A stretch of 64,000 nt of DNA from Candidatus Falkowbacteria bacterium (GTDB lineage Bacteria > Patescibacteriota > Patescibacteriia > Patescibacteriales > UBA12075). The notes under the pieces are model-generated. The model saw nothing but the letters and a program-made list of their open reading frames with translations. It was not told the origin of the DNA and did no database searches. Shown piece after piece: positions 2,099-59,353 of the stretch. The translations under genes and the position numbers were made by a program. Position 1 is the stretch's first letter; every line of letters begins with the position of its first letter. The stretch lies in contig DOSJ01000010.1 of the NCBI GenBank assembly GCA_003514005.1, positions 39,425 through 103,424 on the forward strand, in the 5' to 3' direction.

Positions 2099-3580
<1,482 letters not shown>

Positions 3581-26616: not shown

Positions 26617-26632
26617 TTTTTTATTTTTAGTT

Positions 26633-27079: not shown

Positions 27080-27080
27080 A

Positions 27081-27467: not shown

Positions 27468-27474
27468 AAAAATT

Positions 27475-27876: not shown

Positions 27877-27937
27877 TAATCGAAAACAGATAATAGCAAA
27901 ATAAGCAAGCTATTATCTGTTAAAATACAAAATGATT

Positions 27938-28339: not shown

Positions 28340-28376
28340 ATTTTTAAATTTTTCTAAATAAGTAGCTGTAATTATT

Positions 28377-28754: not shown

Positions 28755-28870
28755 AAAATTGTATTGTTAATTATTATTTAGTCCACCCTTATGGCAATAT
28801 TTTTTTATTGCCATAAGGGTGGATCCCTAGAATTCTAGAGGGACCCACGATATTTTGCGAATTACAGGTT

Positions 28871-29260
28871 TTAGATGTTTCCGCTCAAAGCATCATTTGT
28901 AATGCCAACAACGAAAGTAACGATTGCGAATGCGCACAAAATAATTATCAAGCCGATAACACCGGCGATAATTAATTTTTTTGCCTCAGCAACCTTGTCT
29001 TCGTTTCCAGCCGCAGTCATCCATTTGAAACCACCCAACAATATTACTACAACAGCGATAATACCCAAAAAAGTCATCAAATACTTGACAATGTCTACAG
29101 CCATTTGCTTAGGATCGGATTCGTTAGCTGCCTGTAAATCAAGGTTATTAGCATAATCCAAACCTATATCTTGCGCTGATACCGGTAATATAGCCATTGT
29201 TGAAAACAAAAAAACCATAACTATCGCCGCAAAAATATTTCGAAATAAATTTTTATTCAT
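28871..29260 (-). CDS. VirB2/TrbC-like pilin-family small membrane protein, paralogue 1 (likely major subunit)
   Basis: 129 aa. It is the only array member inspected that has a strong Shine-Dalgarno sequence (GGGGAGGTGA 6 nt before the ATG), and it is followed by a 16-bp perfect hairpin. Confidence 0.75.
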   Translation of the reverse strand: MNKNLFRNIFAAIVMVFLFSTMAILPVSAQDIGLDYANNLDLQAANESDPKQMAVDIVKYLMTFLGIIAVVVILLGGFKWMTAAGNEDKVAEAKKLIIAGVIGLIIILCAFAIVTFVVGITNDALSGNI

Positions 29261-35808: not shown

Positions 35809-38619
35809 ATGTTAAAAAATGTGTTTAACCATTTTTTTGTAAAAAGAAAATCCAAGGAAAAACTGCTTAGTAAAATAGTCGCTATTTCTTTTATTTTGTT
35901 TCAAACGGTTTTTTTAATAATACTTTTGGATTCAAAAATTTTTAAAGTTGGGGCGCAAACTGGCGATACAACCATCATTTCAAATCAAACTTTATACACA
36001 ATCGAACCATTCAAAATAAATATACTAAATCCCGAAAACGCATCAACCCAATTCGGTGATTTAAATATTAAAATTAAATTAAACTTTACCAACATTGCTC
36101 ATATAAACGGTAAATTAATCTTTGGCACCAGCACAATATTCCAAAGTTTTAGCCCGGTTTTAAACGACGGTTATTATAATTATGTATTTCCGACATCCAG
36201 CCTTGAAAATGGTTATTATAAAATAGTTATTCATGCGAGATTAACGACAGCGCAAATAGCTGAGCACTCGATTGAATTTTTTTACCGCAAAAAAACAATT
36301 ACCGAAGTTAATTATCCGATTACGGAACAAGCGACGACAACCACTGAGGCCGTTATTTCTGATGATACCGCAAATGATTTTTTAGCCGAATCAGATTTTG
36401 TTTTAGCTGATTTGAGCGAAATAAGCACTTCCTCGATAGAGGAAATTAACAACACTCTAGCTACCACCAATCCAATTCTTGATAGCGCTTCCGATGTGCT
36501 TATTGCAACTACAGTAGATGGCAGGTTTAACACAGCGCAAACACAACAAAACCCAGACACGGATCCATTAATATTATTTTTTAACGGCACTTTTCCGCAA
36601 ACAATCTCAGCGAATAAAATCTTTAATCTGCAAACCAACAAACCGGTTGATGATGTTGATTTTTTTATTTACGGCCAAACAAATAAAAAATTTGATTCAA
36701 ACTTATATAACAGTATTTATAGCTTCACTCTACCGGCAAAGGATTTTTCAAATGGACGATACATGCTAGAAGCTAGGGCAATAATAAATAACGCAATAGC
36801 GGCGACAAACACTGTTGAAATTATTATTGAAAATCCGGCGCCTCAAATCATGGATAAGCCGATCAGCTACTCGGAAACAGCCACAAATCAAAGCGCTACG
36901 TCCTCGAGAATAGCTACGGCCGAAAATCAAACAAACGAAACAAACGAAAACAAGGAAGTTACGGATGAATGCAAAATAATCGGTATAAACGATTATGGCG
37001 ATTGTCTGATTTTTGAAAACCTAGATCCGCAATGCAAACAAAAGGAAATAAAAACACAATATCAATGCGCGCTTTACTTAAATATGGACGCCAGATGCAA
37101 AGAACTGAATCTAAGTGAAAATGAATGCAGGGAGTATCAGAAACTGTCCCGTGATTGCCAAAACGTAGGCATTACGACTACGTTACAATGCCAAAATTTT
37201 ATTTATAATAAAGCATTGTCGCAAACATGCTTACAAAATAACATAACAGACCATGAAAAATGCAATGAATATTTAACGCTTCTTTCATTGCCTTTTGTTT
37301 GCGCGGAAGCGGAAATAAAAACAAAAGAAAAATGCCGGGATTTTTTAAAAACCAAACAATTAGCTACGGAATGCAAAAACGCCGGAATAAATACCGAAGC
37401 GGAGTGCAATGACTACATTGACGAAGTAAAACAAAAAGCTATTTGCGAATCATTGGAAATTTCAGACAAAAATCAATGCCAGTATTATTGGCAAAATAAA
37501 TATTTAAATCAAGACTGTTTAAACATCGGTATAAATAATCAAACTGACTGCAATGCTTTATTATTCAAAAAATCAAGCAGACAAATATGCGAAACAGCGG
37601 GAATAAGCGATGAAAAAAAATGCGCGCAGTTCATATACAACAAATATCAGTCTGAAATAAATTGTGGAGATACGGACAAATGGCAATGTCAAGAAATTAT
37701 TGAAACAAAATTCTTGGGAGAAATAACCGACAAGCAGACAAAGTATAATGAACTGAATGAAAACTTATCTCACTTTATAAACAAAAAAATATCAATTTCC
37801 GAAATACAATCAGAATTAATCATGGCAAAAGGTTTGCTGCCCTTGAACAGCAAAAATACGCATGTAAAAATATTGCGTCTTGAAAATAAGATACTGCTTG
37901 AAAACAGTAATTTAATCCAAACCTCCCCACTGGCGCTTATTATCGATAATGACGGCGATGGCCTGCCGGATGATACGGAAAAAAGAATAGGCACTGACCC
38001 GAATATTCCAGACAGCGATAATGACGGTTATTCAGACGGCGATGAGGTAAAAAATAATTTTAACCCTTTGGGAACAAGGGGGCTTTCCAAAACTCTTACC
38101 CCGCTTGATCTTGCATTGATAAACGGAGTACTGCTAGAACAGCCTAAAACTGCGGGAATTGTTTCTTCTGATTTTTCCATAAGCAAATTTACCAATTCAG
38201 ACGAAGAAAATTCCTACAAAATATCCGGTACGGCCGAGGCGAATTCTACGATCGCTCTTTATATTTACTCTGACATGCCTCTCCTGGTTACCGCCCGCAC
38301 CGATGAATATGGAAATTGGGAATATGTTTTAAAAGAATCCTTAATTGAAGGCGAACATGAAATCTACGCCGTTTTGAATGACAATACCGGACGCATCACT
38401 AAAAAAAGCAACCCGATTAATTTTTTTATCAAAGAAGCAAAGGCGGTTTCACTCCAAGATTTTGTTTCCGGCGCACCCAAAAACGCGCCAACCAAAACCG
38501 AAAGCATGTTAAGTCTTTATATTGTAATATCCCTCACAATCGCTTTTGCCGGAATACTTTTATTCATCGTCTTTATCATAATGCGTAAAAACAAAAAAGA
38601 TTTAAATGATGAAATATAG
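35809..38619 (+). CDS. Large surface protein: N-terminal anchor, beta-rich domains, 11 Cys-pair repeats, TSP3-like Ca-binding repeats, Ig-like domain, C-terminal TM anchor
   Basis: 936 aa. Cys repeats span aa 388-627. DNDGDGLPDDTEKRIGTDPNIPDSDNDGYSDGDE lies at aa 712-745. The C-terminal helix LSLYIVISLTIAFAGILLFIVFII is followed by a basic tail. Confidence 0.75.
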   Translation: MLKNVFNHFFVKRKSKEKLLSKIVAISFILFQTVFLIILLDSKIFKVGAQTGDTTIISNQTLYTIEPFKINILNPENASTQFGDLNIKIKLNFTNIAHINGKLIFGTSTIFQSFSPVLNDGYYNYVFPTSSLENGYYKIVIHARLTTAQIAEHSIEFFYRKKTITEVNYPITEQATTTTEAVISDDTANDFLAESDFVLADLSEISTSSIEEINNTLATTNPILDSASDVLIATTVDGRFNTAQTQQNPDTDPLILFFNGTFPQTISANKIFNLQTNKPVDDVDFFIYGQTNKKFDSNLYNSIYSFTLPAKDFSNGRYMLEARAIINNAIAATNTVEIIIENPAPQIMDKPISYSETATNQSATSSRIATAENQTNETNENKEVTDECKIIGINDYGDCLIFENLDPQCKQKEIKTQYQCALYLNMDARCKELNLSENECREYQKLSRDCQNVGITTTLQCQNFIYNKALSQTCLQNNITDHEKCNEYLTLLSLPFVCAEAEIKTKEKCRDFLKTKQLATECKNAGINTEAECNDYIDEVKQKAICESLEISDKNQCQYYWQNKYLNQDCLNIGINNQTDCNALLFKKSSRQICETAGISDEKKCAQFIYNKYQSEINCGDTDKWQCQEIIETKFLGEITDKQTKYNELNENLSHFINKKISISEIQSELIMAKGLLPLNSKNTHVKILRLENKILLENSNLIQTSPLALIIDNDGDGLPDDTEKRIGTDPNIPDSDNDGYSDGDEVKNNFNPLGTRGLSKTLTPLDLALINGVLLEQPKTAGIVSSDFSISKFTNSDEENSYKISGTAEANSTIALYIYSDMPLLVTARTDEYGNWEYVLKESLIEGEHEIYAVLNDNTGRITKKSNPINFFIKEAKAVSLQDFVSGAPKNAPTKTESMLSLYIVISLTIAFAGILLFIVFIIMRKNKKDLNDEI

Positions 38620-38810: not shown

Positions 38811-40190
38811 ATGGACATAAGAAAATTTTTGTTAAAAAACCGAATGGCGGCGCAGATTGCGTATGGTATCGTTTTGATTGTCTTGATTCCGCTCTTGATC
38901 ACCTTTAATACGGTTTTTATTATCAATAAATACAATCAAAGTCTGGATATTACCTTGCAAAGACAAGCGCTTTCTATTGGCAGAACAATTTCTACCTTAA
39001 TGGAAAACGATCTGCCTTGGGCGGAATTCGTTCAGATTAAAATCGATACCTTGCTAAAAAATAATATTACTTTGCAAGCAATCGACGTTCTTGCGCCCGA
39101 AGGCGATGGTTTTAAAATTATCGCCGCCAGCGACAATGAGAGAATCGGAAAAAAAAGCGATTACTATTTTTATAAGCTGGCTTGGATGCAGCCAAATAAT
39201 GACGGCTTGGCTACCGATTCCCCGGACGAAGATGGTGGCGGACAATTTCAAACCGAACCGGATAGCGGGCGGTATTGGATGGTTGCCATGCCAATGAATG
39301 GAAACGACGGCAAGAAAGCGGCTTTGCTGAGCGTAAAAATTTCGTCCAAAATCGTTGATGATCTAACAAACTACAATCGCAATATTTCAATCTATATTCT
39401 AATCGGAACTGTCATGATTGTTATTATGTTTCTTTTGGTCGCTGTTCGCCTTTGGGACTATGCTTTGCTTTACAAAAAAATAAAAGAAGTCGACAAAATG
39501 AAAGATGAGTTTATTTCTATCGCTTCTCACGAATTACGAACGCCGGTTACCGGAATTCGCGGTTTTGCCTCTATGATTATCGACGGCACTATGGGCAAGG
39601 TCAGCGACAAAGTGCTGGCAAGCGTAAAGATGATCCATCAGGCATCGGAGCGCTTGGGCACGCTGGTCGAAGACCTTTTGAATGTCAGCCGCATTGAACA
39701 GAATCGCATGACAATCGCTTTGGAATCGATTGATGCCGGTCATGTCATAAACGAAATCATATCCGAATTAAAAGTACAGGCCGATGCAAAAAAATTATAT
39801 CTGGAATTCAAGCCGAATACGCTTACGCTTCCGATTATTACCGTTGACCCGGCGCGGTTCAAGGAAATAATGATTAATTTAATCGGTAACGCGATCAAAT
39901 ATACGGAAAACGGCGGCGTTGAAATATTGACAAGAGAAAAAATCAAATCAAATACTTTGGAAATCATAATCAAAGACACAGGGATTGGCATGGCTTCGAC
40001 TGATCGGGAAAGATTGTTTGAAAAATTCTATCGCATCCAAAACGACAAGACGAAAAATATCAGCGGAACCGGACTGGGACTTTGGATCACAAAAAGATTA
40101 GTCGAACTTATGAACGGAAAAATAATTATCGACTCCATGGAAGGCGTAGGCACGCAGATTACGCTTTCATTTTCTATTACCAAAGGATAA
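38811..40190 (+). CDS. Sensor histidine kinase (orphan)
   Basis: 459 aa. Two TM helices flank an extracytoplasmic domain of about 150 aa. H box SHELRTP, N box NLIGNAIKYT, G boxes DTGIGM and GTGLGL. No response regulator in the window. Confidence 0.85.
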   Translation: MDIRKFLLKNRMAAQIAYGIVLIVLIPLLITFNTVFIINKYNQSLDITLQRQALSIGRTISTLMENDLPWAEFVQIKIDTLLKNNITLQAIDVLAPEGDGFKIIAASDNERIGKKSDYYFYKLAWMQPNNDGLATDSPDEDGGGQFQTEPDSGRYWMVAMPMNGNDGKKAALLSVKISSKIVDDLTNYNRNISIYILIGTVMIVIMFLLVAVRLWDYALLYKKIKEVDKMKDEFISIASHELRTPVTGIRGFASMIIDGTMGKVSDKVLASVKMIHQASERLGTLVEDLLNVSRIEQNRMTIALESIDAGHVINEIISELKVQADAKKLYLEFKPNTLTLPIITVDPARFKEIMINLIGNAIKYTENGGVEILTREKIKSNTLEIIIKDTGIGMASTDRERLFEKFYRIQNDKTKNISGTGLGLWITKRLVELMNGKIIIDSMEGVGTQITLSFSITKG

Positions 40191-40240
40191 AGGCTTTATT
40201 ACAAAAAGGTAAATATAAATTTTATATAATCTTCAATACT

Positions 40241-43015
40241 ATGCCATATTTCAAATTTAAAAATATTAGCTTGTTTTTTTTCGCGCTTTTAACACTACCT
40301 GTTTTTTTCTTCTGTCTGTCCAATAATCCGGTTCAGGCTCAAGTTGAGGAGGAAGAATGCGCTGAGGCTAGTTTTTCAATTATCGCGCGCTCGAGTACAG
40401 GTGATTTCATTCCTAGTATTACGGTTGAAGTTTTTGAACAGATTACGGATGCCGATAACCGGCCAAAACCGGGAACGAAAATCGCATCCGGAAAAACTAG
40501 CGCGATTACGGGAATTTTTTCCTATACCTTGAAAAAACCAAGCGGAAAACAATATGCGATAAAAATGAATGCCACGGACAAAGACGCAACAGCTTTTTGG
40601 TTTTACGACAGCCTGACTTTGAATTGCGGAGAAAGCAAAGAAGTAACAAAATCACTGAGCGCGCTCGAAATAGTTATTAGAGATGCTTTAGGAGTATTAA
40701 AAACTAATGAACAATTTTCAATTTACGCGCAAAAATATGATGCGGATAACAAGCCACTCAAAGAAAAGCTTTCGCTGATCGCCAGCTTGAACACGGGGGA
40801 AGGCGGAAAAAGCACAATATATGTTCCTGCCAGCTCAAACTTTATTAACGGCTCGGGGGCAGCTTATTATATTTTTGAAAAAATCAACGCCAACGGAGGC
40901 TCTTACAGCCAATATGACATACATGCCAGCGAAGGCAATACGACAAAAATTGATTATAAACTAAGCCGTTTAAAATTGGAAATGCAGGATATAAACGGCG
41001 TGTCTTTTCCGGCAAATTCAAAAATCGAGATTTTCAGCCAAGTCAAAAACGAAGACAATGTTTCGGTTCTTAGTACAAAAATAAAAGACGTCTACACAGA
41101 CGACTTAGGCATGGTTAATTTTGAATACCCGGCCGGCATTTACGCGCTTCGCCTTTTGGGTTCAAGCGGAGTATATACATATTTTTGGGATATCGAAATC
41201 AGGGATCAAACGCAAACTACCTACCAACTAAAAACAAACGAAGAATGGCTACCAAGCGGAGGCGCATGCGAAGCATCTTCAAACTTTACTTTATTTACGC
41301 GGGACTTGGATTACCGGCTGATCGCGGGTTTAAATTTTAATATTTACGAGCAAGGCGTCAATGCCGATGGCAAACCCTATGCTCTTGGCAAATTAAGTGG
41401 CGGCACGATTAATGAATCCGGCCAAAGCACGATTATCATAAATCCGGACCCAAGAAAGAAATATGCCTTGCAGATTTATGAAAAGAATGAAAAAGTCGGA
41501 GATTTTTGGTTTTTTGATCAGATCCAATTTGCCTGCGGACAAAATATGGAAGTTACAAAACAACTTCCTGCCCTAAATATTATTCTGCGCGACAGCAAAG
41601 GTGAATTGTTAAGAAACCAATTATTCTCTTTATATACGGAAAAATTCGATGCGGACGAAAAACCGATAAAAGAAAAAAAAGATTTAGTCTCGGATAAATT
41701 CGATTCCGGTGAAAGCGGAAAAATCACGGTTTACCTGGCCGCCAACCATCCATACCTAAAAGAAAAACGCGGCTCTTATGTAATAACACTTACAAACAAA
41801 GACAAAATAACATTTACTGAATACGGTATAAACATCAGCCCTTCGCAAAATCTTGAACTGGATTATAGCTTAAGCGGTCTGGCAATCACATACAAAAACG
41901 CAGAGGGAAAAATTAACTCTGAAAAAACAGTTGACATATATGAACAAGTGCAAAATGCCGAACGCCAAAATATTCTAGGAAAAAAAATAAAATCACTCAA
42001 AACCGACGCGTACGGTATAGCTTCCCTTGAATATCCGACCGGCAGTTTCGCCGCTGTTGTAACCGACAGCTTACAACAAAAAAATATTTTTTGGAATCTA
42101 TTGATAAAAAACCGCCAAATGTCAAAGACGGAATTAAATGAAAACAAAATCAGAATTAACATCAAAGATGGAACAGGTAAAAAAATAAGCAAAAAAATGA
42201 CAATCAGTGTCTATACTTTAAAAAAAACTCAGGACGCTTACACAATCGACAAAAAACTGAAATCACTCAGCAGCGAAGCGGACGGAACTCTAGACGCTTC
42301 TTTGGCTCCCGGCGCTTATCTGTTTTCTGTCAGCGACCAAAAGATCGAATATGGCAAAGCCATATATGCCGAAAACGGCAAAGCGCAAACTCTTGAAATA
42401 AAAATGAGCTCTGCGGAAAAAATCCTTAGCGGCCAAAAATTCAAGCTTGGCTCCGCAGACTCTTTATCGCTGGCAGAAAAAATGAAAGGCCGCCTGCTTT
42501 TGCAGGTTGAAAATAATGGCGAAACATGGTATGTAGATCCAAATACGCTCAAAAGATTCTATGTCAAAGACGGTCCGACCGCTTATGAAACTCTGCGTAA
42601 ATTCGGACTAGGTATTACTAATGCTGATTTAAACAAAATACCCGTCGGACTTGACGCCCGTTTTGAAGAATGGGATTATGACGGCGACCTAGTACCGGAC
42701 AAAATGGAAGAAGCGCTAGGCACCGATATGTATGAATATGACACGGATAACGACGGCTATAATGACGGAGAAGAACTAATAAACGGCTATAATACGCTTG
42801 GCGCCGGAAAACATAATCTTGACAATAATCTTGCCAAACGTTTAGGCGGAAAAATTTTATTGCAAACCGAATCAAGGGGAGAGGCTTGGTATATTAACCC
42901 AAGCGATAATCGCCGTTATTACATGAAAGACGGCGAATCCGCTTACGAAATAATGCGCTTCTTATCACTCGGAATTACAAACGCAAATTTGGAAAAAATC
43001 GAAGAAGGGAAATAG
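40241..43015 (+). CDS. Large secreted protein: two ~300-aa repeated super-modules of beta-sandwich domains, two ~51-aa C-terminal modules separated by TSP3-like Ca-binding repeats
   Basis: The start is moved to the ATG at 40241 (MPYFKFKNISLFFFALLTLPVFFFCLSNNPVQAQ is a signal peptide). The track start at 40082 overlaps the kinase gene. Confidence 0.75.
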   Translation: MPYFKFKNISLFFFALLTLPVFFFCLSNNPVQAQVEEEECAEASFSIIARSSTGDFIPSITVEVFEQITDADNRPKPGTKIASGKTSAITGIFSYTLKKPSGKQYAIKMNATDKDATAFWFYDSLTLNCGESKEVTKSLSALEIVIRDALGVLKTNEQFSIYAQKYDADNKPLKEKLSLIASLNTGEGGKSTIYVPASSNFINGSGAAYYIFEKINANGGSYSQYDIHASEGNTTKIDYKLSRLKLEMQDINGVSFPANSKIEIFSQVKNEDNVSVLSTKIKDVYTDDLGMVNFEYPAGIYALRLLGSSGVYTYFWDIEIRDQTQTTYQLKTNEEWLPSGGACEASSNFTLFTRDLDYRLIAGLNFNIYEQGVNADGKPYALGKLSGGTINESGQSTIIINPDPRKKYALQIYEKNEKVGDFWFFDQIQFACGQNMEVTKQLPALNIILRDSKGELLRNQLFSLYTEKFDADEKPIKEKKDLVSDKFDSGESGKITVYLAANHPYLKEKRGSYVITLTNKDKITFTEYGINISPSQNLELDYSLSGLAITYKNAEGKINSEKTVDIYEQVQNAERQNILGKKIKSLKTDAYGIASLEYPTGSFAAVVTDSLQQKNIFWNLLIKNRQMSKTELNENKIRINIKDGTGKKISKKMTISVYTLKKTQDAYTIDKKLKSLSSEADGTLDASLAPGAYLFSVSDQKIEYGKAIYAENGKAQTLEIKMSSAEKILSGQKFKLGSADSLSLAEKMKGRLLLQVENNGETWYVDPNTLKRFYVKDGPTAYETLRKFGLGITNADLNKIPVGLDARFEEWDYDGDLVPDKMEEALGTDMYEYDTDNDGYNDGEELINGYNTLGAGKHNLDNNLAKRLGGKILLQTESRGEAWYINPSDNRRYYMKDGESAYEIMRFLSLGITNANLEKIEEGK

Positions 43016-43016: not shown

Positions 43017-46000
43017 TTAGATATTTTTATAATATTTTTCCGGTCCCATGGTTTTTAAAAGTATCATTTGCAATTGTTCGTGATTAATTTCTCCATTTAA
43101 AGTAAACAAGTCCTCAATCCGCGTCTTGCTTTCGCCATTTGCCAAGATGTGGCTGGAAAATAATTGACCCATCGAAGAAACCATACAGCCTTCAGGCGCC
43201 AAATTAATGCAAAGGTCATATCCTTCCTTGGCTTTTATACTTATCTCACCAAGATAAGCCGGCAATTCTCCTTGCGGCTTGGCCGTTGCCAATACTGCTC
43301 GCGATTCTCCTAAAATACTTTTCATGTCATACGGCAAACGTAAGCTAGCTGCTTTATATAATGGCTTGGCTAAAACGCGCCTAATTCCTTTTTCCAAAAA
43401 ACGAAGCTTGGCAATTTGCACTTTTTCAATCAATCTTTTGCTGATTTTCGGTTCATAATTGTTTTTCTCTCTCATTTCAGTCATCCGATAATTCAAAATC
43501 AGTTCTAAGTAAAGCCATAACGGAGAATATTCGGCCTGAAACGAAGAAAACCCGATCGCGTCCACCAAACCATAAAAAACATCTTCAACTTGCGCCGCTT
43601 TGATATATGCTTCGCCGTCCAAAAAAATCTTGGTACGGCCTTTTTTGTTTTTGGCTTGAGTCGTCTGCCAGCGTTTGGAAAAATCTGACAAGACTTGGCG
43701 CAAACCATTATTGTTATAAAGCCCAAACGCGAAAAATTTATAAACTGCTCCGACAAAAAGCGAGATGCGGCTGATTTTTTCTGAAATGCGCAAGGCATTT
43801 GTTGTTGGTTTTGTTCTGTCTTCCAATACTTGATTAATCTTTTTTTTCAAGTCTAAATACTCCTGATAAAATAATTTAAACTGTTTATAATCAGCGCAGT
43901 CTGCACCGAATTTTAAGAACAGAAAATGCAGTACGCCTTGCAAAACCAAACCTTGGAATGACTGAACCAAAACCCACTCCGGAACGCCGATATTATAGTT
44001 CTCTTTTTCATGGCCGGCCAAAAGCTTAATCTGATAATCAAGCGACCGGTCAAAATTCGCTCCACAGGCTGAACATTCATGTTTCTTGTTCAAAAGAAAT
44101 TTGTGCATTTCAAAATACTGTCCTTGCCGACAGGGACCTGTGCCTTTGTTATCAAATACCAAAATCCGGCTTTTGTCTTTCACAAGCGGATCATTCGCTT
44201 TTTTTCTTTTGACAAAATCTTCTTCTGCCAAAAAAATATCGGCAAATACCGCGGCCAAAGGCGCGCAAACCGAATCGCCGGCATATTTGCGGCCCAAGCG
44301 CACTTTTTGCTCCAAATCATATTCGCCGTCAAGAAAATTATCAATCACGCTTATGCCGGCGCCGCGAAAAACGCTCGTGAGCATCCGATTATCTTGCAAT
44401 GTCGGAAAATAGATGACATCGGTTTCAGGATTCAATTTTTGCGCGTCATAATCATCGATTATTTTTATTTCAAAATTATTTCCCGAAAAAGTTTGGTGCA
44501 ACTTTTTTTCCAGCTGATTGATATAAGTATTCACCCGATTTTCCAAATGAGCCAGCTCCTTGATCATCGCGTCCGACTGGATGAACAGACTGGGGATTTT
44601 TTTTGTGATCTCGGCGATAAGCGGTGAAATGACAGCATCCGGTCCGCAACGGAAAGTCGATACCTGCACCAATGATATCAAACGACTGTCTTTAATCTGT
44701 TCAAATTTTCGAACTATATTTTGCAAGCGCTCATGTTTTAATATTTCCGAAAGCCGGTTGTTGGCAATCACGTTTATCTTGCTTACCAAGTCATGCGGAT
44801 TGCGCCAATAAATGTGGGCAAAATCCGCATCCAATTTTGCCTCAAAAGCATAAGCCGGAATCGCGATGGATCTTTTGTCTTTTATCAGCTTGCCGATATG
44901 ACTGTCATAAATTCCCGGATTAAGGATGTATTCTCTTCCGCAGACGATGGTTATACTGCGCTTTTCCTTCCAACAAAGCTCCAGCGCAAGAGCGGTAATA
45001 TCGGCTACGCTGTCTTTGATTTTTTGATTCTGTCCGTTTGCAAACGCGACTGCTTCGGCTATTCTTTTTTCAGAAGCCTTTATATTGTAAAATCGAAATA
45101 CTTTTTGCAATTTCCGTTTTAGCTGGTTAGCCAGATATTCTGGATCATAGCTCTTTATGCTTAAATCAAAAAGATGGATATTGCTTTGCGGATAACGGGC
45201 CTTGGCAAACCTTTCCGCAACCGCGATTCCGCCCTGGTTAGTGGTGCAAGTCCGGCCCAGACTTTTGCCTTCTGTCGGTAAAAAATCAATCTGCGGAGCA
45301 AGGATAATGCCATGTTCTTCTCCGGCCAAACGGATGAACTGCCCGACCGCGCCGATCAAAGGCGCGCAAACATCGATATCAAACAAGCCTTGAGCGCTGA
45401 GTATGTCTTGCTCCCGCACATTGTCAACGCAAACCGGAATGTCAAGATTTTCAAAAATCTGTGATAAAAAATAAGCCTGCTCCGATACCGCGAAACTGCG
45501 GGGAATAACCAAGCGTTTTTTGTCCATGCTCTTAGGCATCTGCTGATCAATAAATTTCCAGATATCGCCGTACACATCGCTTATTCCGCTTTCGGTCTTG
45601 TCCCCATAAGCAAGTTCGTTTACGCTTGAACAGCCGCCCAGCAATACCGTAAGCTTGTTATCCGAGTTTTGCGACGTAAGCAAAGTGCGCGCACAGCAAG
45701 CATTCTTGTCGCCACAAGCTACGCCATAGCAGTTAATTATCTTTTTTTCAAATTGCAAATCCAAAAAATCATCCAAGTCACAAACGTTTTCCACGATCTC
45801 TTTTTTGGCAATAGACTCGATCAATCCGATACAGGCCCTATGTCCCGGAAACGGCGGCACCAAAGAAAACATTTCTCCGTCATCCAAAAGCCGACGGGTC
45901 GCGGCCAAGGGCAACGGATCAGAAAGCATTGTCTGTCCGTGCAAAAGCACAACCGCGTTTTTGGGAAAATCGATCTGGTTCCAAAGCGTGCGCGCCATAT

Positions 46001-47669
46001 TCTCGATGATTGCGTAATTACATGATGCCAAAATCTCGTCCTGCGGATAGCCCATTGCTTGCATCTTCTTAGCATTTTCCATTAAAAAAACCGCACAAGT
46101 CGCGTTTATCTCATACGCCTTTGGCGCGTTAAAAGATCGCAAACAAGCCTCGCCGATGCTTTCAATGCCGAACAAAGCCTTGAGCGTATCCATCAAACTG
46201 CCGGTTCCGGCCGAACATTTGATATTCATCGCGTTATCAAATAGCTCCTCTTTTTCCAGAGAAATAGTCGATACTTTCGTGTCTTCGCCGCCGATATCAA
46301 CCAAAACGCAAAACTTGCGGTTTATTTCAGGAAAGCGGCTTTGCAAATCATTAATATGTTTTTTCGCATAAGCGATTGAACCGTGCGCGTGCGCATAATT
46401 TTCTACCAAAACAAAAATATTTATTCCTGATTTCTGATAAATCTTTTGCAATATACTCTGTACCTGATATCGGCCACTGCCGGTAATCCCTATGTTCTGG
46501 ATATTAAGGCTTTTTACCCCTTTCTTTTTAATATCCAAAAAAATCTGCTTTACAGTCTCAATCGTATCGCCATGATTGTCATAAGACCCTTTAAAAATAA
46601 TTCTTCCGTCGATCGCGTCCGCAATCAATATTTTTGCCATTGTCGAGCCAATATCTAGTCCGATGTTTATCGGCATTGTTTCCAATTCATGGCCGATAAC
46701 CTCGGCTATTTCCGAGTCTGGCAGTCTTTTATAATAGCCTTTCTCAATAAAATCGGTTTTCAAACTTTGAAAACCGGGATATTCCAAAAACTTTTCCGCT
46801 TTGCTTAAGCGCCGGTCTTCTTGCTTACGAAAATTTTCCCAGCCGATTTCATTTACCAGACTCGAAACACCTCGCAAAAGCATATCCTGTTCATTATCAT
46901 AAATAATTTCTTTTACTCCGGCTTGCAAAAGAAAATCTTTTGCGCAATCGCGTAAAAATTGCCAAGCAAAAACACGTCCACAAAGATGCACGATCTCAAT
47001 ATTTTCCGGCATCCGGCGGCAAACCTTCATTGCTTCGGATTTTAGCGTTATCGCCAAAGCATATGCCAAGGGCACGCCCTGATTCTTATCGGAAATAGTA
47101 GCCGAGGAACTAAATACTCCGCATCTGTCTGCTCGAACCTGAACATGGCTTCTTTTTTCCTTGCCTTGTTCACCCAAATATTCACAAAGTATTTCATCTA
47201 CTTCTTCATACTGAATATCCAGCTTCTGCAAAATTCGGCTGATATTAATTCCGCTTCCGGCGCCACAACGCGGATTCGCAAGCAAAAGATCGTCTATAAG
47301 CTCCCCCTTCTGATCAACGGCAACCAGCATATAACCGGATGCGGACAAATCAATAATTCCCAAAGACTTGCAATCATGCGCCCTTGCTTCTTTCATCAGA
47401 TGCTTCGCCTCCGCCCACAGGGCGGCGGAACTTAAAATTATTTCTCCATGTCCCAAAGTTTCCCTGACAATATTTGCCAGCTTACCACTAATATATATGT
47501 CATTATTTTTATTTTTCAAAACATCCAAAATCTGAAACTGCAAAAACAGCTTTTCAATCCGGTCATTATTCGGAATAAGCAAATCCCGCTTCTCCACCCC
47601 ATCCCAAATGCGCACATGAATATTCGCAATTCCAGCATCGATTATTATTTGTAATTTTTTTTCTAACAT
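43017..47669 (-). CDS. Giant fused activase/dehydratase-like protein (two HgdC/BcrAD-BadFG-type ATPase domains plus a ~900-aa CoA-enzyme-activase-associated region)
   Basis: The second ATPase domain has DIGSTMAK, VDIGGEDTK, KCSAGTG and TCAVF. The first has IIIDAG, IIDLSASG, RCGAGSG and RCGVFSS. The start is moved to the ATG at 47669 because codons 1-35 of the track ORF derive from repeat sequence. Confidence 0.7.
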   Translation of the reverse strand: MLEKKLQIIIDAGIANIHVRIWDGVEKRDLLIPNNDRIEKLFLQFQILDVLKNKNNDIYISGKLANIVRETLGHGEIILSSAALWAEAKHLMKEARAHDCKSLGIIDLSASGYMLVAVDQKGELIDDLLLANPRCGAGSGINISRILQKLDIQYEEVDEILCEYLGEQGKEKRSHVQVRADRCGVFSSSATISDKNQGVPLAYALAITLKSEAMKVCRRMPENIEIVHLCGRVFAWQFLRDCAKDFLLQAGVKEIIYDNEQDMLLRGVSSLVNEIGWENFRKQEDRRLSKAEKFLEYPGFQSLKTDFIEKGYYKRLPDSEIAEVIGHELETMPINIGLDIGSTMAKILIADAIDGRIIFKGSYDNHGDTIETVKQIFLDIKKKGVKSLNIQNIGITGSGRYQVQSILQKIYQKSGINIFVLVENYAHAHGSIAYAKKHINDLQSRFPEINRKFCVLVDIGGEDTKVSTISLEKEELFDNAMNIKCSAGTGSLMDTLKALFGIESIGEACLRSFNAPKAYEINATCAVFLMENAKKMQAMGYPQDEILASCNYAIIENMARTLWNQIDFPKNAVVLLHGQTMLSDPLPLAATRRLLDDGEMFSLVPPFPGHRACIGLIESIAKKEIVENVCDLDDFLDLQFEKKIINCYGVACGDKNACCARTLLTSQNSDNKLTVLLGGCSSVNELAYGDKTESGISDVYGDIWKFIDQQMPKSMDKKRLVIPRSFAVSEQAYFLSQIFENLDIPVCVDNVREQDILSAQGLFDIDVCAPLIGAVGQFIRLAGEEHGIILAPQIDFLPTEGKSLGRTCTTNQGGIAVAERFAKARYPQSNIHLFDLSIKSYDPEYLANQLKRKLQKVFRFYNIKASEKRIAEAVAFANGQNQKIKDSVADITALALELCWKEKRSITIVCGREYILNPGIYDSHIGKLIKDKRSIAIPAYAFEAKLDADFAHIYWRNPHDLVSKINVIANNRLSEILKHERLQNIVRKFEQIKDSRLISLVQVSTFRCGPDAVISPLIAEITKKIPSLFIQSDAMIKELAHLENRVNTYINQLEKKLHQTFSGNNFEIKIIDDYDAQKLNPETDVIYFPTLQDNRMLTSVFRGAGISVIDNFLDGEYDLEQKVRLGRKYAGDSVCAPLAAVFADIFLAEEDFVKRKKANDPLVKDKSRILVFDNKGTGPCRQGQYFEMHKFLLNKKHECSACGANFDRSLDYQIKLLAGHEKENYNIGVPEWVLVQSFQGLVLQGVLHFLFLKFGADCADYKQFKLFYQEYLDLKKKINQVLEDRTKPTTNALRISEKISRISLFVGAVYKFFAFGLYNNNGLRQVLSDFSKRWQTTQAKNKKGRTKIFLDGEAYIKAAQVEDVFYGLVDAIGFSSFQAEYSPLWLYLELILNYRMTEMREKNNYEPKISKRLIEKVQIAKLRFLEKGIRRVLAKPLYKAASLRLPYDMKSILGESRAVLATAKPQGELPAYLGEISIKAKEGYDLCINLAPEGCMVSSMGQLFSSHILANGESKTRIEDLFTLNGEINHEQLQMILLKTMGPEKYYKNI

Positions 47670-47768
47670 TAACTCATTTATATTAAAATATATTTTGTGA
47701 CTTAGGCCAAAAATGAATGGTTCTTTCGGCAATTCTGTGGACAAATTTTTAAACACTTTTCCTCTACT

Positions 47769-47799
47769 TGTCATTCCCGCGTAGGCGGGAATCTTGGTT
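47769..47799. mobile_element. Solo terminal repeat of the MITE-like family (copy 6, half element)
   Basis: TGTCATTCCCGCGTAGGCGGGAATCTTGGTT has no partner end nearby. A fragment of the 188-bp element end (GACTTAGGCCAAAAAT) lies next to it at 47700-47716. Confidence 0.65.
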
Positions 47800-47893
47800 T
47801 AACAATAACAAAATATTTTATCCATAAAATTATCTCAAAAACTAAATATAACTTTATTAATTGTTCTTTGTCAGTTTACCGAACAAACCCGTT

Positions 47894-51773: not shown

Positions 51774-52823
51774 TTATTGTTCTTCCACTTCACGCGCTTT
51801 TACTTCTGACATAATTTTTTTTCGGATTTCTTTCATGAGTTTTTTATCAGCCCGCAAAAAGCGTTTCGCATTTTCACGGCCAACGCCCAGTTTGATATCG
51901 CCAAAAGAATATGAATTGCCGGACTTGCCGATCGTACCCATAACCACCCCCGTGTCCAATAGATCGCCGGATATGGAAATACCTTCGTTATACATAATAT
52001 CAAATTCACATGTCTTGAACGGAGCGGCGACTTTGTTTTTTACTATTTTGGTTTTTACGCGATTGCCAATAATCTTGTCTCCCTGTTTAATCTGCGCGCT
52101 GCGGCGCACTTCGATGCGAACCGAGCTATAAAACTTTAGAGCTGTACCGCCGGTAGTCGTTTCCGGATTGCCAAAAAATACACCGATCTTCAAACGGATC
52201 TGGTTAATGAAAATAATAACAGTTTTTGTCTTTGAAACAACGCCCGTAAGTTTGCGCAAGGCTTGGCTCATGAGCCGCGCCTGCAAACCCATGTGTTGAT
52301 CCCCCATTTCACCTTCGATTTCTTTTCTCGGAACCAAGGCCGCGACCGAATCAACAACAATAACATCAACCGCGTTTGAACGGACAAGCGTTTCCACAAT
52401 CTCCAAAGCCTGTTCGCCGGTATCTGGCTGAGATATCAGCATCTCTTTGATATTAACGCCGATTTTCTGCGCATAATCCGGATCAAGAGCGTGCTCCGCA
52501 TCCACAAAAGCCGCAATACCGCCCAATTTTTGCACCTCGGCGACGATATGCTGTGCCAAAGTGGTTTTTCCCGATGCTTCCGGACCAAAAATCTCGATAA
52601 CGCGTCCGCGCGGCACGCCGCCGATACCCAGCGCCAAGTCAAGCGACAAACATCCAGTCGGAATCGCGTCTACATTGGTTTTTTGCGCTTCGCCGAATTT
52701 CATAATAGAGCCTTCACCAAATTTTTCTTTTATCTGCGCCATCGCGTTCATAGCGGCCGCCATTTTCTCATCGGTTTCTTTTTTGTTATCATTTTTTACT
52801 GTTTTGCCTTCTTCATTTGCCAT
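51774..52823 (-). CDS. recA: Recombinase A
   Basis: 349 aa. Walker [10 protein letters not shown] and the RecA signature ALKFYSSVR. Confidence 0.95.
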
Positions 52824-53958: not shown

Positions 53959-54411
53959 TTATTGAAACCATGAGGAATTAAAAATATTTTTTGTCGCTTC
54001 AATGCCCATGGCCTTGGCTGTAAAATTGATTATCGTATAGCTGGCAAAAACCACCAGTAAACCGATAACCGCTCCAATTATTGTATTTTTTCCTCGTTCA
54101 ACCAATGATTTGTTCCCGGCAGAAACCAGAAACATAACTCCGCCAGCCACAAATGCCAAAAGCGCCAAAGCGCCGACAATACCTAAAATAATTTTCGATA
54201 TCCTAACCAAAAGTTCTAAAACATCATTAACTTGATAATTACCACAATATTTTTTACACGCATCATCACTGCATGTTGAACAGTCTCCAGTGAAAGTATT
54301 CGCATCCAAAACGGTAGTCGGCGTCGGATCTGCACTTACAAAAACTGGTAAAAAACAAAACAAAAAAAACAACACGATAATTATACTATTAAATATTTTT
54401 TTTATTCTCAT
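53959..54411 (-). CDS. VirB2/TrbC-like pilin-family small membrane protein, paralogue 9 (Cys-rich N-terminal region)
   Basis: 150 aa. Same two-helix core (AGGVMFLVSAGNKSLVERGKNTIIGAVIGLLV), preceded by GDCSTCSDDACKKYCGNY. Confidence 0.65.
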   Translation of the reverse strand: MRIKKIFNSIIIVLFFLFCFLPVFVSADPTPTTVLDANTFTGDCSTCSDDACKKYCGNYQVNDVLELLVRISKIILGIVGALALLAFVAGGVMFLVSAGNKSLVERGKNTIIGAVIGLLVVFASYTIINFTAKAMGIEATKNIFNSSWFQ

Positions 54412-57952: not shown

Positions 57953-59353
57953 CTAGCTTAATTTGTGATCATCCTTGTCCTTTTCGTTCTGCTCGCGTCT
58001 TTCTTTGATCAATTCGCGGTTGACCCAAAAAATCCAAGCAATAACCATAAACAAGAAAACAATAAATATCACCAAGTTCATTTTAAGCTTACCTTGTTGT
58101 TCTTTGCTTTCATTAACCAAGCCCTTTTCCTGAGACGATGTTCCATTACCATCTGTATTTAAAATATCTTTAATATCCTGATTAGCTTCTTCGCTTGTAG
58201 TCTTATCCTCTTTTGCATCAGCATCAGCATCAACAACATCATCAGCCTTTTTCTCTTCGGTCTCTTTTACTGCTTCGGGTTTGTCGGTTTTTTTCACTTC
58301 TTCTCCCTGTGTCTGTTCTGTTTCCTTTTTAACATCCTGCTCCTCGCCTTTTACGGCCAGGTCAGAAGCAACCCGTCCGACATTAAAATAAAAAATATTT
58401 GACCAAACACTTTCCTTTCCGCGCGCATCAACCGCTGTTGCGTAAATCATGTGTCTGCCTTCTGTAAGCGGTAAAAACGGTTTGTAATTAAAGTGGGCTG
58501 TTCCGGAAATATGAGCGCCAACCAAAAATTCTCCATTCAACTTTTTATCAACAAACACTCTGATTTTAGAATTATTTTTTGCCACGCCGGCAATAAACGG
58601 CTGGTTAGCATTAGTATTGCCATTAACAACTGTTGCTAATATAGTCGGCGCCGGATTTGGATTTTCTATGCGAAAATGTAGAACATTAGACGCGCCACTA
58701 ATCCTTCCGCTCGCGTCCTCTGTCTTTGCCCAAGCAGTATGCCATCCCGGCTCCAAATTCAAGAAAGGAACATATTTAAAATTCGCTGTTCCGGATTCAT
58801 GCTGTAAATAATCGGTCTTGCCATTGTACTTGCCGTCAATAAAAAGATGCACAAAAGTATTATTAACTGTAAGACCGGTAATAAATGGCTTAACTTTTCC
58901 GGTGATAGTTTTTTCATCCGGCTGGATCAAAGTTGGTGCCGGAAGAGAATTGATTGAAAAATGATATTCGTTGGAAACATTTGAAAGTCGAAGTGAAGTT
59001 TTGTCTTTCGCTATTACCGTAACGCTATGAGTCCCCTCTTTCAAATCTTGCTTGATTTGATAATAAAAATTATCAGTACCGGTTTGCTCGCGATTAATCT
59101 CTGCGTTCCCCTCATAAACTCCGTTCAAATATACCATTACCTCAGAATTTTCCGGACTAAGCCCAAGCACCAAAGGCTGGTTGGCATCCTCTGAGCCATC
59201 TTGATCAACACCGGTAATAAGCGGATCTCTGGTTGTTTCAATCGCAAAAACGCCGCTTAAACCAATATTAAAAAAAACAATTAACAACAAAGAACAAAAA
59301 AACCGTTTTTGATATTTTTTCATATTTCCCTTCTGTTTTCCTCCAAAAAACAT
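57953..59353 (-). CDS. Surface protein with three ~90-aa Ig-like repeats, an acidic/Lys-rich linker and a C-terminal TM anchor
   Basis: 466 aa. Signal peptide, then repeats ending HFSI / HFRI / YFNV, then the helix MNLVIFIVFLFMVIAWIFWV near the C-terminus. Confidence 0.65.
   Translation of the reverse strand: MFFGGKQKGNMKKYQKRFFCSLLLIVFFNIGLSGVFAIETTRDPLITGVDQDGSEDANQPLVLGLSPENSEVMVYLNGVYEGNAEINREQTGTDNFYYQIKQDLKEGTHSVTVIAKDKTSLRLSNVSNEYHFSINSLPAPTLIQPDEKTITGKVKPFITGLTVNNTFVHLFIDGKYNGKTDYLQHESGTANFKYVPFLNLEPGWHTAWAKTEDASGRISGASNVLHFRIENPNPAPTILATVVNGNTNANQPFIAGVAKNNSKIRVFVDKKLNGEFLVGAHISGTAHFNYKPFLPLTEGRHMIYATAVDARGKESVWSNIFYFNVGRVASDLAVKGEEQDVKKETEQTQGEEVKKTDKPEAVKETEEKKADDVVDADADAKEDKTTSEEANQDIKDILNTDGNGTSSQEKGLVNESKEQQGKLKMNLVIFIVFLFMVIAWIFWVNRELIKERREQNEKDKDDHKLS

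Follow-up and report, generated by a model that had tools for sequence, protein, structure and literature searches.

The largest gene in a 64,000-nucleotide stretch of a Candidatus Falkowbacteria contig (the whole of which is referred to here as the window) probably encodes a self-contained, oxygen-sensitive, ATP-driven low-potential reductase or dehydratase of the BCR-I/HAD ('archerase') type built as one chain. Sequence comparisons place it in a small, tightly conserved clade, distantly sister to PlsA and Ger, two bacterial enzymes of ether-lipid formation; the clade has members in CPR bacteria and DPANN archaea, ultra-small symbionts, and in some sediment anaerobes. The estimate covers machine type and sister-clade placement taken together and leaves the substrate aside. 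The protein carries two tandem ATPase domains, a cysteine-rich linker and two reductase halves [Table 1], has cysteines and folds related to those of known archerases and their partners, and is homologous to the PlsA family, colinearly, along its full length.

A gene of about 1550 codons, larger than any other in the window, had been claimed at this site by the initial annotation, and both points are borne out by the ORF list, in which an uninterrupted minus-strand frame of 1585 aa runs from 47774 to 43017 and the runners-up reach 977 and 936 aa. The start at 47669 (Met36 of this frame, MLEKKLQ) is also the start for most homologs and was chosen independently in the gene calls of the source contig, which likewise give 1550 aa; the in-frame upstream ATG (47772-47774) sits within a GC-rich hairpin (47773-47792). 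A database protein (P0001) is 100% identical to the product, in which no transmembrane segment was found. All of the motifs quoted initially are present (RCGAGSG at residue 134, RCGVFSS at 182, KCSAGTG at 484, TCAVF at 524, VCAPLIG at 767, SVCAPLAAV at 1133 and GPCRQGQY at 1178). The assignment of the host to the CPR also held, since the window encodes a RecA that matches the one from Candidatus Falkowbacteria GW2011_GWC2_38_22 at 100% identity.

Table 1. Positions in the window of the gene, its predicted modules and the region 5' of it.
Feature	Position	Strand	Residues and content	Basis
Complete coding sequence	43017..47669	-	1550 aa + TAA stop (43017-43019)	ORF list, translation
Domain 1, ASKHA-fold, archerase-like	46680..47669	-	aa 1-330	Colinearity, model, cysteines
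Domain 2, BcrAD_BadFG/HgdC-type ATPase	45810..46679	-	aa 331-620	Pfam, PDB matches
Linker module	45600..45752	-	aa 640-690	Four invariant cysteines (C647, C652, C659, C680)
Reductase half 1, DUF2229, HAD-subunit-like	44490..45527	-	aa 715-1060	C768, C808, C1008
Reductase half 2, PlsR-equivalent	43020..44489	-	aa 1061-1550	C1135, C1180, C1495
Intergenic region 5' of gene	47670..47893	-	Promoter-like site and hairpin	Consensus scan, sequence

The N-terminal 700 residues were predicted to fold confidently as a single unit (pLDDT 83.9, pTM 0.84) whose best structural neighbours are MbdQ, HadI and HgdC. Domain 2 is an HgdC-type ATPase: BcrAD_BadFG (PF01869) matches residues 336-585 (E 4e-13), PDB sequences that match it include HadI (4eht, E 3e-10) and HgdC (1hux, E 2e-8), Foldseek aligns it with MbdQ, HadI and HgdC at a TM of about 0.8, and both ATP motifs are intact (GLDIGSTMAK, VDIGGEDTK). 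Its cluster cysteines, C485 (46215-46217) and C525 (46095-46097), align with C127 and C166 of HgdC. In domain 1, IIDAGIANIH stands for GIDVGSTTVK and IIDLSASGY for IELGGQDAK, and Pfam finds no match even at E <= 10, whereas the colinear domain 1 of PlsA and the canonical family retains the ATP motifs and is detected by Pfam. Domain 1 nevertheless aligns in register with domain 2 (hhalign, E 0.019), displays a beta-beta-beta-alpha-beta-alpha-beta-alpha pattern in the model and keeps its cluster cysteines, C135 (47265-47267) and C183 (47121-47123), which align with their counterparts both in domain 2 and in the canonical domain 1 and are invariant in 22 clade and 17 canonical sequences. The pseudo-dimer of two ASKHA domains proposed at the outset thus stands as regards its tandem domains and the HgdC register of all four cysteines, but it is asymmetric, because the ATP-binding motifs of domain 1 are degenerate and the domain is invisible to Pfam.

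The C-terminal part was also modeled confidently (pLDDT 84; pTM 0.84-0.85 for both halves of the protein). DUF2229 (PF09989) matches residues 722-931 above cut-off (E 3e-14 with the whole protein, 3e-15 with the fragment); the third Pfam model proposed initially besides BcrAD_BadFG and DUF2229, HGD-D, stays below it (E 0.026 and 7e-4, respectively). Pfam finds nothing in reductase half 2, and a sequence profile of the C-terminal part retrieves no HAD, BCR or DCCP subunit from the PDB. With hhalign, half 2 follows the canonical family colinearly as far as residue 1522, and the two halves align in register at VCAPLIGA/VCAPLAAV. Foldseek ranks DCCP, HadC and BzdN/O highest for this part with probabilities of 0.96-1.0, albeit with weak E-values (1.5e-3 to 0.08) and TM scores of 0.4-0.5. 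Each half has three invariant cysteines: those of half 1 are shared by the window clade and the canonical family, and those of half 2, along with R1181 and Y1185 of a CRxxxY motif that starts at C1180, are invariant in 39 sequences. Their spacing resembles that of C95/C128/C380 of BzdO and that of HadB/HadC (PMC11971306, PMC7317905), whereas double-cubane proteins have six to seven cysteines (PMC7317905, PMC11971306); the pattern is HAD-like rather than DCCP-like. The suggested kinship of the C-terminal region with dehydratases and double-cubane proteins therefore survives at the level of the HAD/BCR-I/DCCP fold, through Foldseek and DUF2229, and fails for the cysteines, which are not those of a double cubane.

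Between the two parts lies a predicted small, beta-rich linker (strands 641-648, 658-667 and 672-677; pLDDT 60-75). Its four cysteines are invariant in 42 of 42 clade members; three of them (C652, C659, C680) recur without exception in 17 canonical/PlsA sequences, in which the fourth is displaced (CxxC). The module presumably forms a metal site, Fe-S or Zn.

Fused enzymes of this sort were initially said to have unknown substrates, a statement that PlsA/PlsR and Ger, which share a similar architecture (PMC13159169, PMC12838417, PMC9702350), have made outdated, although it still applies to the window clade. A reference E. faecalis-type PlsA was recovered via a published primer; the gene has 4248 bp and a TetR gene upstream, both as published, and its product is 56% identical to the canonical fused family of ~1430 aa. 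PlsA, an anaerobic plasmalogen synthase, and PlsA-PlsR (E. faecalis EF1327-type, a single gene; C. perfringens CPE1194-1195) share the order Act1-Act2-linker-Red1-Red2 with the window protein, and the clade and canonical profiles align over 1319 colinear columns (hhalign, probability 100, E 7e-71). Thirteen cysteines are invariant across 22 clade and 17 canonical sequences including the E. faecalis-type PlsA, as are R912, Y914, R1045, R1181 and Y1185. Identity to PlsA and the canonical family is nonetheless low, at 22% by BLASTP to PlsA (the reductase half being scarcely alignable), 17% over profile columns and 18-20% in a trimmed alignment; characterised enzymes have been linked at 41-55% (PMC12838417), and 30% has been used for Ger homologs (PMC13274423), both above the values found here. 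The window protein is ~120-135 aa longer through several insertions, has a shifted fourth linker cysteine and scores 86-104 bits against TIGR00241, below cut-off, compared with 245.9 for PlsA. Ger (T. maritima Tmari_0479, D. alkenivorans SHJ90043), a glycerol ester reductase or 'modified PlsA', is an anaerobic enzyme that needs no partner on expression in E. coli (PMC13159169). It was compared by description only: its Pfam layout, given as BBD plus small D/H pieces on one chain (PMC13159169), is similar to that of the window protein, but Ger is described as a close PlsA homolog with two Pfam-detectable B domains, whereas Pfam detects a single B domain in the window protein and places no H domain above cut-off.

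These data bear on whether the window protein is simply the PlsA or Ger of its lineage, with the role that these have in Firmicutes or Thermotoga, its low identity reflecting nothing but fast evolution in CPR and DPANN. The identical four-module architecture, the 13 shared cysteines and a gene that stands alone, as plsA does in E. faecalis, are in keeping with orthology, and 'Ger homologs' have been described in candidate phyla and, among DPANN, in Woesearchaeota and Pacearchaeota (PMC13159169, PMC11868695), although the DPANN ones may or may not belong to the window clade. The clade, however, is not fast-evolving: its members, from CPR, DPANN, Nitrospirota, Spirochaetota and others, are 41-74% identical to one another, yet all are at ~18-20% to the PlsA family. 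The database holds 949 matches at E <= 1e-5, well beyond what chance would give; all 120 of those listed have an E of 0 and 47-100% identity, and nearly all of them 94-100% query coverage. An exhaustive phmmer search of the C-terminal part against 1.84 billion representatives leaves a clean gap between clade (E <= 1e-160) and canonical proteins (1e-9 to 3e-4), and a long branch divides the two in an NJ tree. Sixteen cysteines are invariant across 42 clade members, among them the 13 shared with the canonical sequences. Extra invariant cysteines (C217, C242, C613, C647, C1258), the degenerate domain-1 motifs and several insertions are fixed features particular to the clade. Such a pattern is that of an old paralogous family, often meaning a different substrate or product. 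On alignment evidence we thus regard the window protein as non-orthologous to the PlsA and Ger enzymes so far characterised, and consider the ortholog explanation unlikely.

A classical CoA-thioester enzyme fused to its activator, such as a 2-hydroxyacyl-CoA (e.g. lactoyl-CoA) dehydratase or an aryl-CoA reductase serving fermentation, appears more doubtful still. Its fold and three-cysteine clusters would be those of HAD and BzdO (PMC11971306), but the closest characterised full-length relatives use lipids rather than CoA esters (PMC13159169). CPR and DPANN organisms are fermenters, and relatives are labelled '2-hydroxyacyl-CoA dehydratase' or 'activator of 2-hydroxyglutaryl-CoA dehydratase' in databases, although these are generic domain-based names. 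HAD and BCR genes usually lie in operons with CoA-transferase, dehydrogenase or ETF genes, whereas no CoA-transferase, 2-hydroxyacid dehydrogenase, acyl-CoA dehydrogenase or ETF gene adjoins the gene or its homologs in twelve contexts. The search for a substrate-related partner suggested initially found no neighbour conserved in eleven other homolog contexts, save in the closest relative (74% identical), which fits a self-sufficient enzyme. A PlsB-like acyltransferase gene located 1.8 kb from the Spirochaetota homolog is a weak lipid hint.

Comparison with HAD and class I BCR separates what is shared from what is particular to the fused chain. HadBC with HadI, and HgdAB with HgdC, rely on an archerase ATPase whose [4Fe-4S] site is of the helix-cluster-helix kind, a site to which C485 and C525 align, and HAD has two homologous catalytic subunits with a three-cysteine [4Fe-4S] cluster each (PMC7317905), as the homologous reductase halves would. 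The HAD activator, however, is a separate, transiently docking homodimer with both ATP sites intact, whereas the window protein is one chain throughout with one degenerate site, and has no sequence-level match to HadB/HadC. Class I BCRs (BzdNOPQ, MbdONPQ, BcrABCD) resemble it in that two different ASKHA subunits bridge one cluster and serve a heterodimeric reductase, MbdP being, with MbdQ, among the best N-terminal structural matches; they differ in having four separate subunits and, in BzdN, a six-cysteine [8Fe-9S] double cubane (PMC11971306), whereas neither half here has six cysteines. A DCCP-like double-cubane reductase of small molecules is very improbable: DCCP of the DCCP:DCCP-R complex (7yyl_B) is the best Foldseek match of the C-terminal part, as the initial kinship proposal would lead one to expect, and DCCP-R (7yyl_E) matches domain 2, but DCCP forms homodimers, each unit having ~420 aa, with a seven-cysteine motif (PMC7317905; six to seven per ~400 aa) that is missing here, and the spacing of the three cysteines per half fits single-cubane subunits. 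A decaying or mis-assembled relic of horizontal transfer is scarcely credible, since a patchy, cross-domain distribution and a local GC content (0.40-0.45) a little higher than in the rest of the window are outweighed by an intact 4.65-kb frame, 16 invariant cysteines with strong conservation over many lineages, and the same gene on independent contigs.

For the preferred archerase-type reductase, the cofactors, electron path and chemistry that we infer are as follows. A [4Fe-4S] cluster held between the ASKHA domains by C135, C183, C485 and C525 would be reduced by ferredoxin or flavodoxin. Domain 2 would be essentially the sole site of ATP binding and hydrolysis, since the phosphate-binding motifs of domain 1 are gone, and this would push the electron uphill to the C-terminal pseudo-heterodimer, possibly via or beside the linker site. 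Each half would carry a [4Fe-4S] cluster on its three cysteines, and the cysteine-free iron of one cluster may bind the carbonyl oxygen of the substrate, as in 2-hydroxyacyl-CoA dehydratase and BzdO, so that one-electron transfer would yield a ketyl radical. By analogy with PlsA and Ger, the enzyme may act on a pre-formed, scavenged membrane glycerolipid and turn one of its acyl esters into an alkenyl or alkyl ether, our best guess for the substrate but a tentative one, more apt to be wrong than right. DPANN hosts are expected to provide isoprenoid ether lipids with no ester to reduce, which counts against it. A CPR-enriched, post-0.2-um groundwater sample was devoid of bacterial ether lipids (bioRxiv 10.1101/465690), which argues against general ether-lipid formation in CPR.

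The distribution check suggested initially for CPR genomes shows a clade reaching beyond them, recorded only from uncultured CPR bacteria, from DPANN archaea and from some bacterial anaerobes of sediments; all of its named members come from uncultured organisms. Unlike plsA of E. faecalis, the window gene has no TetR regulator gene upstream; a consensus scan of the region predicts a promoter-like site, CTGACA-18-TATATT, at 47874-47845.

The 1550-aa protein of the Falkowbacteria window is, as judged from its sequence relationships, a member of a distinct clade of PlsA/Ger-type single-chain archerase-reductases (an archerase being an ASKHA/BcrAD-BadFG electron-activating ATPase) that is common to CPR bacteria and DPANN archaea and whose first ATPase domain is degenerate. 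Its gene, the longest ORF in the window as the initial annotation had stated, is a single uninterrupted reading frame in whose translation all of the motifs quoted in that annotation were found. The start at Met36 of this frame, which yields the 1550-aa product, is also that chosen by a metagenome gene call (ENA ERZ27254744 k141_575689, 93-kb contig) and corresponds to the beginning of most homologs. A GC-rich hairpin overlapping the upstream in-frame ATG has no T-tract on the strand of the target gene; it could terminate the methyltransferase gene lying upstream, or serve in regulation. The CPR origin proposed for the contig is borne out by the RecA protein encoded in the window, which is 100% identical to that of Candidatus Falkowbacteria bacterium GW2011_GWC2_38_22 and whose next-best matches come from Falkowbacteria and Patescibacteria. 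No transmembrane segments were found in the target, and an integral-membrane enzyme class was dropped on this ground.

Coordinates of the target gene and of other features in the window
Feature	Position	Strand	Remarks
Target ORF, full open frame	47774-43017	minus	stop codon 43017-43019
Target gene from Met36	47669-43017	minus	1550 aa
Linker 4-Cys module	45600-45752	minus	aa 640-690, between ATPase and reductase parts
Hairpin, 8-bp, GC-rich	47773-47792		ATTCCCGC-GTAG-GCGGGAAT
Sigma-70-like site	47874-47845		
Convergent ORF	40082-43015	plus	924-977 aa; stop codon 43013-43015, 1 nt from target stop
recA	51774-52823		
Eight tandem T4SS_pilin ORFs	25776-29260	minus	124-151 aa each
Ninth T4SS_pilin copy	53959-54411		
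ELP3-like protein gene	14505-16160	minus	551 aa
16S rRNA gene	2099-3580		
tRNA-Ile, Met, Phe, Pro, Gly	to 4810		follow the 16S rRNA gene
Predicted surface protein gene	35809-38619		
Predicted surface protein gene	57953-59353		

The amino-terminal part had been described as two ASKHA/BcrAD-BadFG domains, a description that stands in full for domain 2 (aa 331-620): Pfam places BcrAD_BadFG (PF01869) at residues 336-585 (49.9 bits, cut-off 31.5), a PDB sequence search aligns the domain with HadI, HgdC, MbdQ/MbdP and DCCP-R, and its phosphate-1 (DxGST..K) and phosphate-2 (DIGGxD) motifs are intact (GLDIGSTMAK, VDIGGEDTK). Domain 1 (aa 1-330) returned zero Pfam matches even at E <= 10; its profile runs in register with that of domain 2 (hhalign E 0.019; ITGK/ITGSG, DLSASG/DIGGED, NPRCGAGSG/NIKCSAGTG), and in the canonical relatives, the ~1430-aa fused proteins that are colinear with the target throughout, it is a strong PF01869 match. 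Its assignment to the archerases comes solely from profile-profile colinearity with the canonical domain 1 and from the topology of the AlphaFold2 model. The model of the N part (700 aa; pLDDT 83.9, pTM 0.84) has MbdQ, HadI and HgdC as Foldseek neighbours (TM about 0.8 on target, E 1e-13). The phosphate motifs that are intact in domain 1 of canonical PlsA are replaced throughout the clade by fixed alternatives (GIDVGSTTVK by IIDAGIANIH, IELGGQDAK by IIDLSASGY, and GGP by (T/C)GRVF), so that only one of the two ATPase units carries intact phosphate motifs. We infer from these motifs that the archerase is asymmetric, one ATP site only being predicted to be catalytic. Whatever its substrate, a natural enzyme of this kind would lend itself to work on the coupling between ATP hydrolysis and uphill electron transfer.

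Sixteen cysteines are invariant in 42 of 42 clade members, and most of them fall into sets. C485 and C525 of domain 2 align in the printed alignment of the PDB sequence search on C127 and C166 of HgdC, reportedly the ligands of the cluster bridging the HgdC subunits, a [4Fe-4S] center (Locher et al. 2001). C135 and C183 of domain 1 are in register with this pair and all four residues, which make up the putative bridging-cluster set, are invariant in 39 sequences, in agreement with the earlier proposal of two HgdC-register cysteines per ATPase unit. C647, C652, C659 and C680 lie in a small beta-rich linker module that might hold zinc or act as a further Fe-S relay, and of which we found no description in the literature examined. 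Each reductase half contributes three residues (C768, C808 and C1008 in half 1; C1135, C1180 and C1495 in half 2), both of these sets being invariant in the 42 clade members and in 17 canonical sequences, and C242 and C613 complete the sixteen. Each of the two three-cysteine sets would ligate a putative [4Fe-4S] cluster that leaves one iron open. The sole other conserved cysteine in the reductase halves, C1258, is restricted to the clade.

The carboxy-terminal part is recognized by Pfam as DUF2229 (PF09989) at residues 722-931 (53.7-57 bits against a cut-off of 29.4), with a sub-threshold match to HGD-D (PF06050; 14.5-19.7 bits against 28.4); nothing in a Pfam search matched half 2. The two halves nonetheless align with one another, weakly and in register, at the first cysteine motif (VCAPLIGA versus VCAPLAAV). 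PDB sequence-profile searches returned activators only and no catalytic subunit of a 2-hydroxyacyl-CoA dehydratase (HAD), benzoyl-CoA reductase (BCR) or double-cubane cluster protein (DCCP); thioredoxin-like matches at residues 974-1042 (E 0.003-0.9) were taken as chance. The AlphaFold2 model of this part (911 aa; pLDDT 84.6, pTM 0.85) has DCCP (7yyl_B), HadC (3o3m_B) and BzdN/O (8s02) as Foldseek neighbours with a probability of 0.96-1.0, but with weak E-values and TM-scores. With HadB/HadC and BzdO (C95/C128/C380) the target shares three cysteines per ~400-aa half and their spacing, whereas the double-cubane motif of DCCP and BzdN consists of 6-7 cysteines in one ~400-aa unit (CX19CX18-19CX29CX166-170CX32-34CX32C) and is missing from the target (PMC7317905, PMC11971306). 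Of the two relationships first suggested for this region, that to the dehydratases is retained and that to the double-cubane proteins is abandoned. Taken as a whole, the original observation is confirmed and its interpretation partly supported. We consider it likely that the protein is an ATP-driven, Fe-S-dependent one-chain reductase or dehydratase of the BCR-I/HAD type, in which low-potential electrons would be injected into a substrate-binding [4Fe-4S] cluster.

The initial annotation further held that the substrates of such fused forms are unknown, a view outdated by the literature on PlsA/PlsR and Ger, which have the same architecture. PlsA/PlsR, the anaerobic plasmalogen synthase, combines two PF01869 domains with PF09989 and small PF06050 pieces; it takes two genes in C. 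perfringens and a single gene in E. faecalis, Lactococcus and Bifidobacterium (PMC9702350, PMC12838417). The same architecture is found in Ger, a glycerol ester reductase known from T. maritima and D. alkenivorans that yields alkyl ethers (PMC13159169, PMC8788747). Ger homologs have been reported from 'candidate phyla' and DPANN archaea, and PlsA and Ger are indistinguishable by sequence (PMC11868695, PMC13274423). These enzymes are defined by their activity on glycerolipids, whose sn-1 acyl ester they turn into an alkenyl or alkyl ether under anoxic conditions.

A reference PlsA was recovered through an exact match of the E. faecalis K-4 plsA forward cloning primer (Table S6, PMC12838417) in ten metagenome contigs; on one of them (L014) the plsA gene measures 4248 bp, identical to the published length, and on another (L018) a divergent TetR regulator is present, as described upstream of EF1327. 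A 1446-aa Acetoanaerobium protein found via a plasmid collection matches this PlsA at 56% identity over 1407 aa, on account of which we equate the canonical fused family with the PlsA family. That family is very large, with at least 8000 candidates, all at E <= 1e-20; the 120 matches listed for the Acetoanaerobium protein are 1408-1460 aa long, the named ones being mostly Clostridia, and no cultured organism is among the cluster names of the canonical-family matches. Comparison of the clade with the canonical family by hhalign gave a probability of 100 and E 7e-71 over 1319 colinear columns at 17% identity, the canonical set in this comparison (A5) excluding PlsA itself, which is linked to it by the 56% identity given above. 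When 22 sequences of the clade and 17 of the canonical family, PlsA among them, are aligned together, 43 columns are invariant, of which 13 are cysteines and others include R912, Y914, R1045, R1181 and Y1185. The target thus displays the Act1-Act2-Red1-Red2 architecture with full-length homology to the PlsA family. On the evidence of these alignments the machine is one that it shares with that family, and the basic chemistry is probably shared as well.

Orthology is a different matter. By BLASTP the target is 22% identical to PlsA over 443 aa (E 7e-15), in the ATPase part only, the reductase part being unaligned, and in a trimmed alignment it is 18-20% identical to canonical members. Characterised PlsAs are 41-55% identical to one another (PMC12838417), and for a protein to count as a Ger homolog the literature has required E <= 1e-50 (PMC13159169) or more than 30% identity at E <= 1e-30 (PMC13274423); with the BLASTP values above and phmmer E-values of 1e-9 to 3e-4 for its C part against canonical proteins, the target falls outside these ranges. 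Nor does it show the 'BBD' pattern of two activation domains plus DUF2229 present in all confirmed alkyl-ether producers (PMC13159169), having one PF01869 stretch where PlsA and a Haliovirga protein show two each. The PlsA family also keeps the linker cysteine module, but with the ligand corresponding to the clade's fourth linker cysteine shifted, and the clade adds five conserved cysteines and several insertions. NCBIfam holds no dedicated model for PlsA or for the clade. The target is in our opinion likely to belong to a family that is sister to PlsA/Ger and not to be an ortholog of these enzymes. A possible identity of the 1639-aa clade members with the Bifidobacterium PlsA of 1639 aa, which has been characterised, was rejected, as a cluster look-up traced the former to sediment and 'Bacteroidota' MAG proteins.

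An exhaustive phmmer search of 1.84 billion representatives clustered at 50% identity, with the C part as query, yielded 109 proteins in total at E <= 1e-3. About ten of these represent the clade in nearly full-length form (39-50% identity, E <= 1e-160) and most others are fragments, canonical ~1400-aa proteins reaching E 1e-9 to 3e-4 at best. One representative, P0129, is 1891 aa long, shows four separate stretches of similarity to the C part (residues 1112-1818) and may be a longer fusion variant. The named clade members, all from uncultured organisms, belong to Falkowbacteria, Parcubacteria, the 'Patescibacteria group', Woesearchaeota, Nanoarchaeota and an 'archaeon', and further to Nitrospirota (complete 2.29-Mb CP070669), Aminicenantes, Spirochaetota, KSB1 and Bacteroidota MAG fragments. 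A profile-free scan of the contig collection with the target protein found one locus, from an uncultured archaeon. The archaeal assignments are considered genuine since the homolog P0028 adjoins an archaeal S13-S4-S11-RpoD-L18e-L13-S9-RpoN cluster on a 620-kb contig and the homolog P0010 lies among PriS, GINS, eIF2-alpha, aRF1 and proteasome genes. Archaeal sequences are nested among CPR ones in a neighbour-joining tree, and the target is 61% identical to a DPANN protein versus 59% to another Falkowbacteria protein, a pattern indicative of cross-domain gene transfer.

The neighbourhood of the gene is for the most part not conserved. The closest relative (74% identity, contig L003) keeps the convergent 923-aa ORF, which has no Pfam match, as well as genes for a histidine kinase and for a TSP3/Big_13 surface protein; beyond this relative, no conserved neighbours were found in ten further contexts (twelve contexts in all). 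No CoA-transferase, acyl-CoA dehydrogenase or ETF gene adjoins the target homologs in any context examined, which speaks against catabolism of the classical HAD/BCR kind and agrees with a lone enzyme acting, like PlsA, on a ubiquitous substrate. Near the Spirochaetota homolog, at 13489-16107 and 4521-6173 of contig L012, are a gene for a PlsB-like glycerol-3-phosphate acyltransferase, 1.8 kb downstream, and, immediately upstream, one for a B12-binding radical SAM/DUF4080 protein. Downstream of the Nitrospirota homolog, radical SAM, GT2, B12-radical SAM and amine oxidase genes form a cluster (contig L011, 13750-18596). These neighbours, each seen once, may be lipid-related; the PlsB-like gene, the sole lipid-related neighbour, comes from one Spirochaetota MAG and is too thin to build on. 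The annotated parts of the window contain no lipid-synthesis genes, although 64 kb says little in this respect.

CPR genomes measure roughly 1 Mb. The strong constraint on a 1550-aa enzyme with several predicted Fe-S sites in genomes so small, and its exchange between bacterial and archaeal symbionts (50-61% identity), suggest an important function carried out without pathway partners. Our first choice of substrate, a tentative one that we hold with less than even confidence, is a glycerolipid acyl ester, based on the architecture, the shared invariant residues, the stand-alone genomic setting and the biology of lipid-scavenging symbionts. Against it stand the ~20% identity to PlsA, the expectation that DPANN archaea take isoprenoid ethers from their archaeal hosts, and the finding that a CPR-enriched groundwater fraction was devoid of bacterial ether lipids (bioRxiv 10.1101/465690). 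Complete lipid pathways are missing from CPR and DPANN genomes (bioRxiv 10.1101/465690), which raises the question of how these organisms build and adapt their membranes. If the substrate were a pre-formed lipid, lipid auxotrophs could tailor host-derived membranes, and surveys counting 'Ger/PlsA homologs' as sources of ether lipids or brGDGTs may pool two families ~20% identical. It is conceivable, if rather improbable, that CPR and DPANN organisms unable to make membrane lipids share, by repeated cross-domain transfer, an ATP-driven radical enzyme that remodels scavenged host lipids (ester to ether or vinyl ether, or an undescribed related reduction) by means of a half-dead archerase in which one of two ATPase sites is catalytic. 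Lipid remodelling or new chemistry, if shown, would raise the interest of the clade.

Other features of the window deserve mention. The eight tandem small ORFs all match PF18895 (T4SS_pilin) and, with the ninth copy located elsewhere in the window, form a striking array of pilin-like paralogs for a small genome. The ELP3-like protein combines ELP3_N, radical SAM, Radical_SAM_C and GNAT acetyltransferase domains. No 23S rRNA gene accompanies the 16S rRNA gene in the other 60 kb of the window, so that the rRNA genes are unlinked. Finally, Big_13 (and TSP3) repeats occur in both of the large predicted surface proteins; cell-surface proteins of this kind are characteristic of CPR bacteria with an episymbiotic lifestyle.
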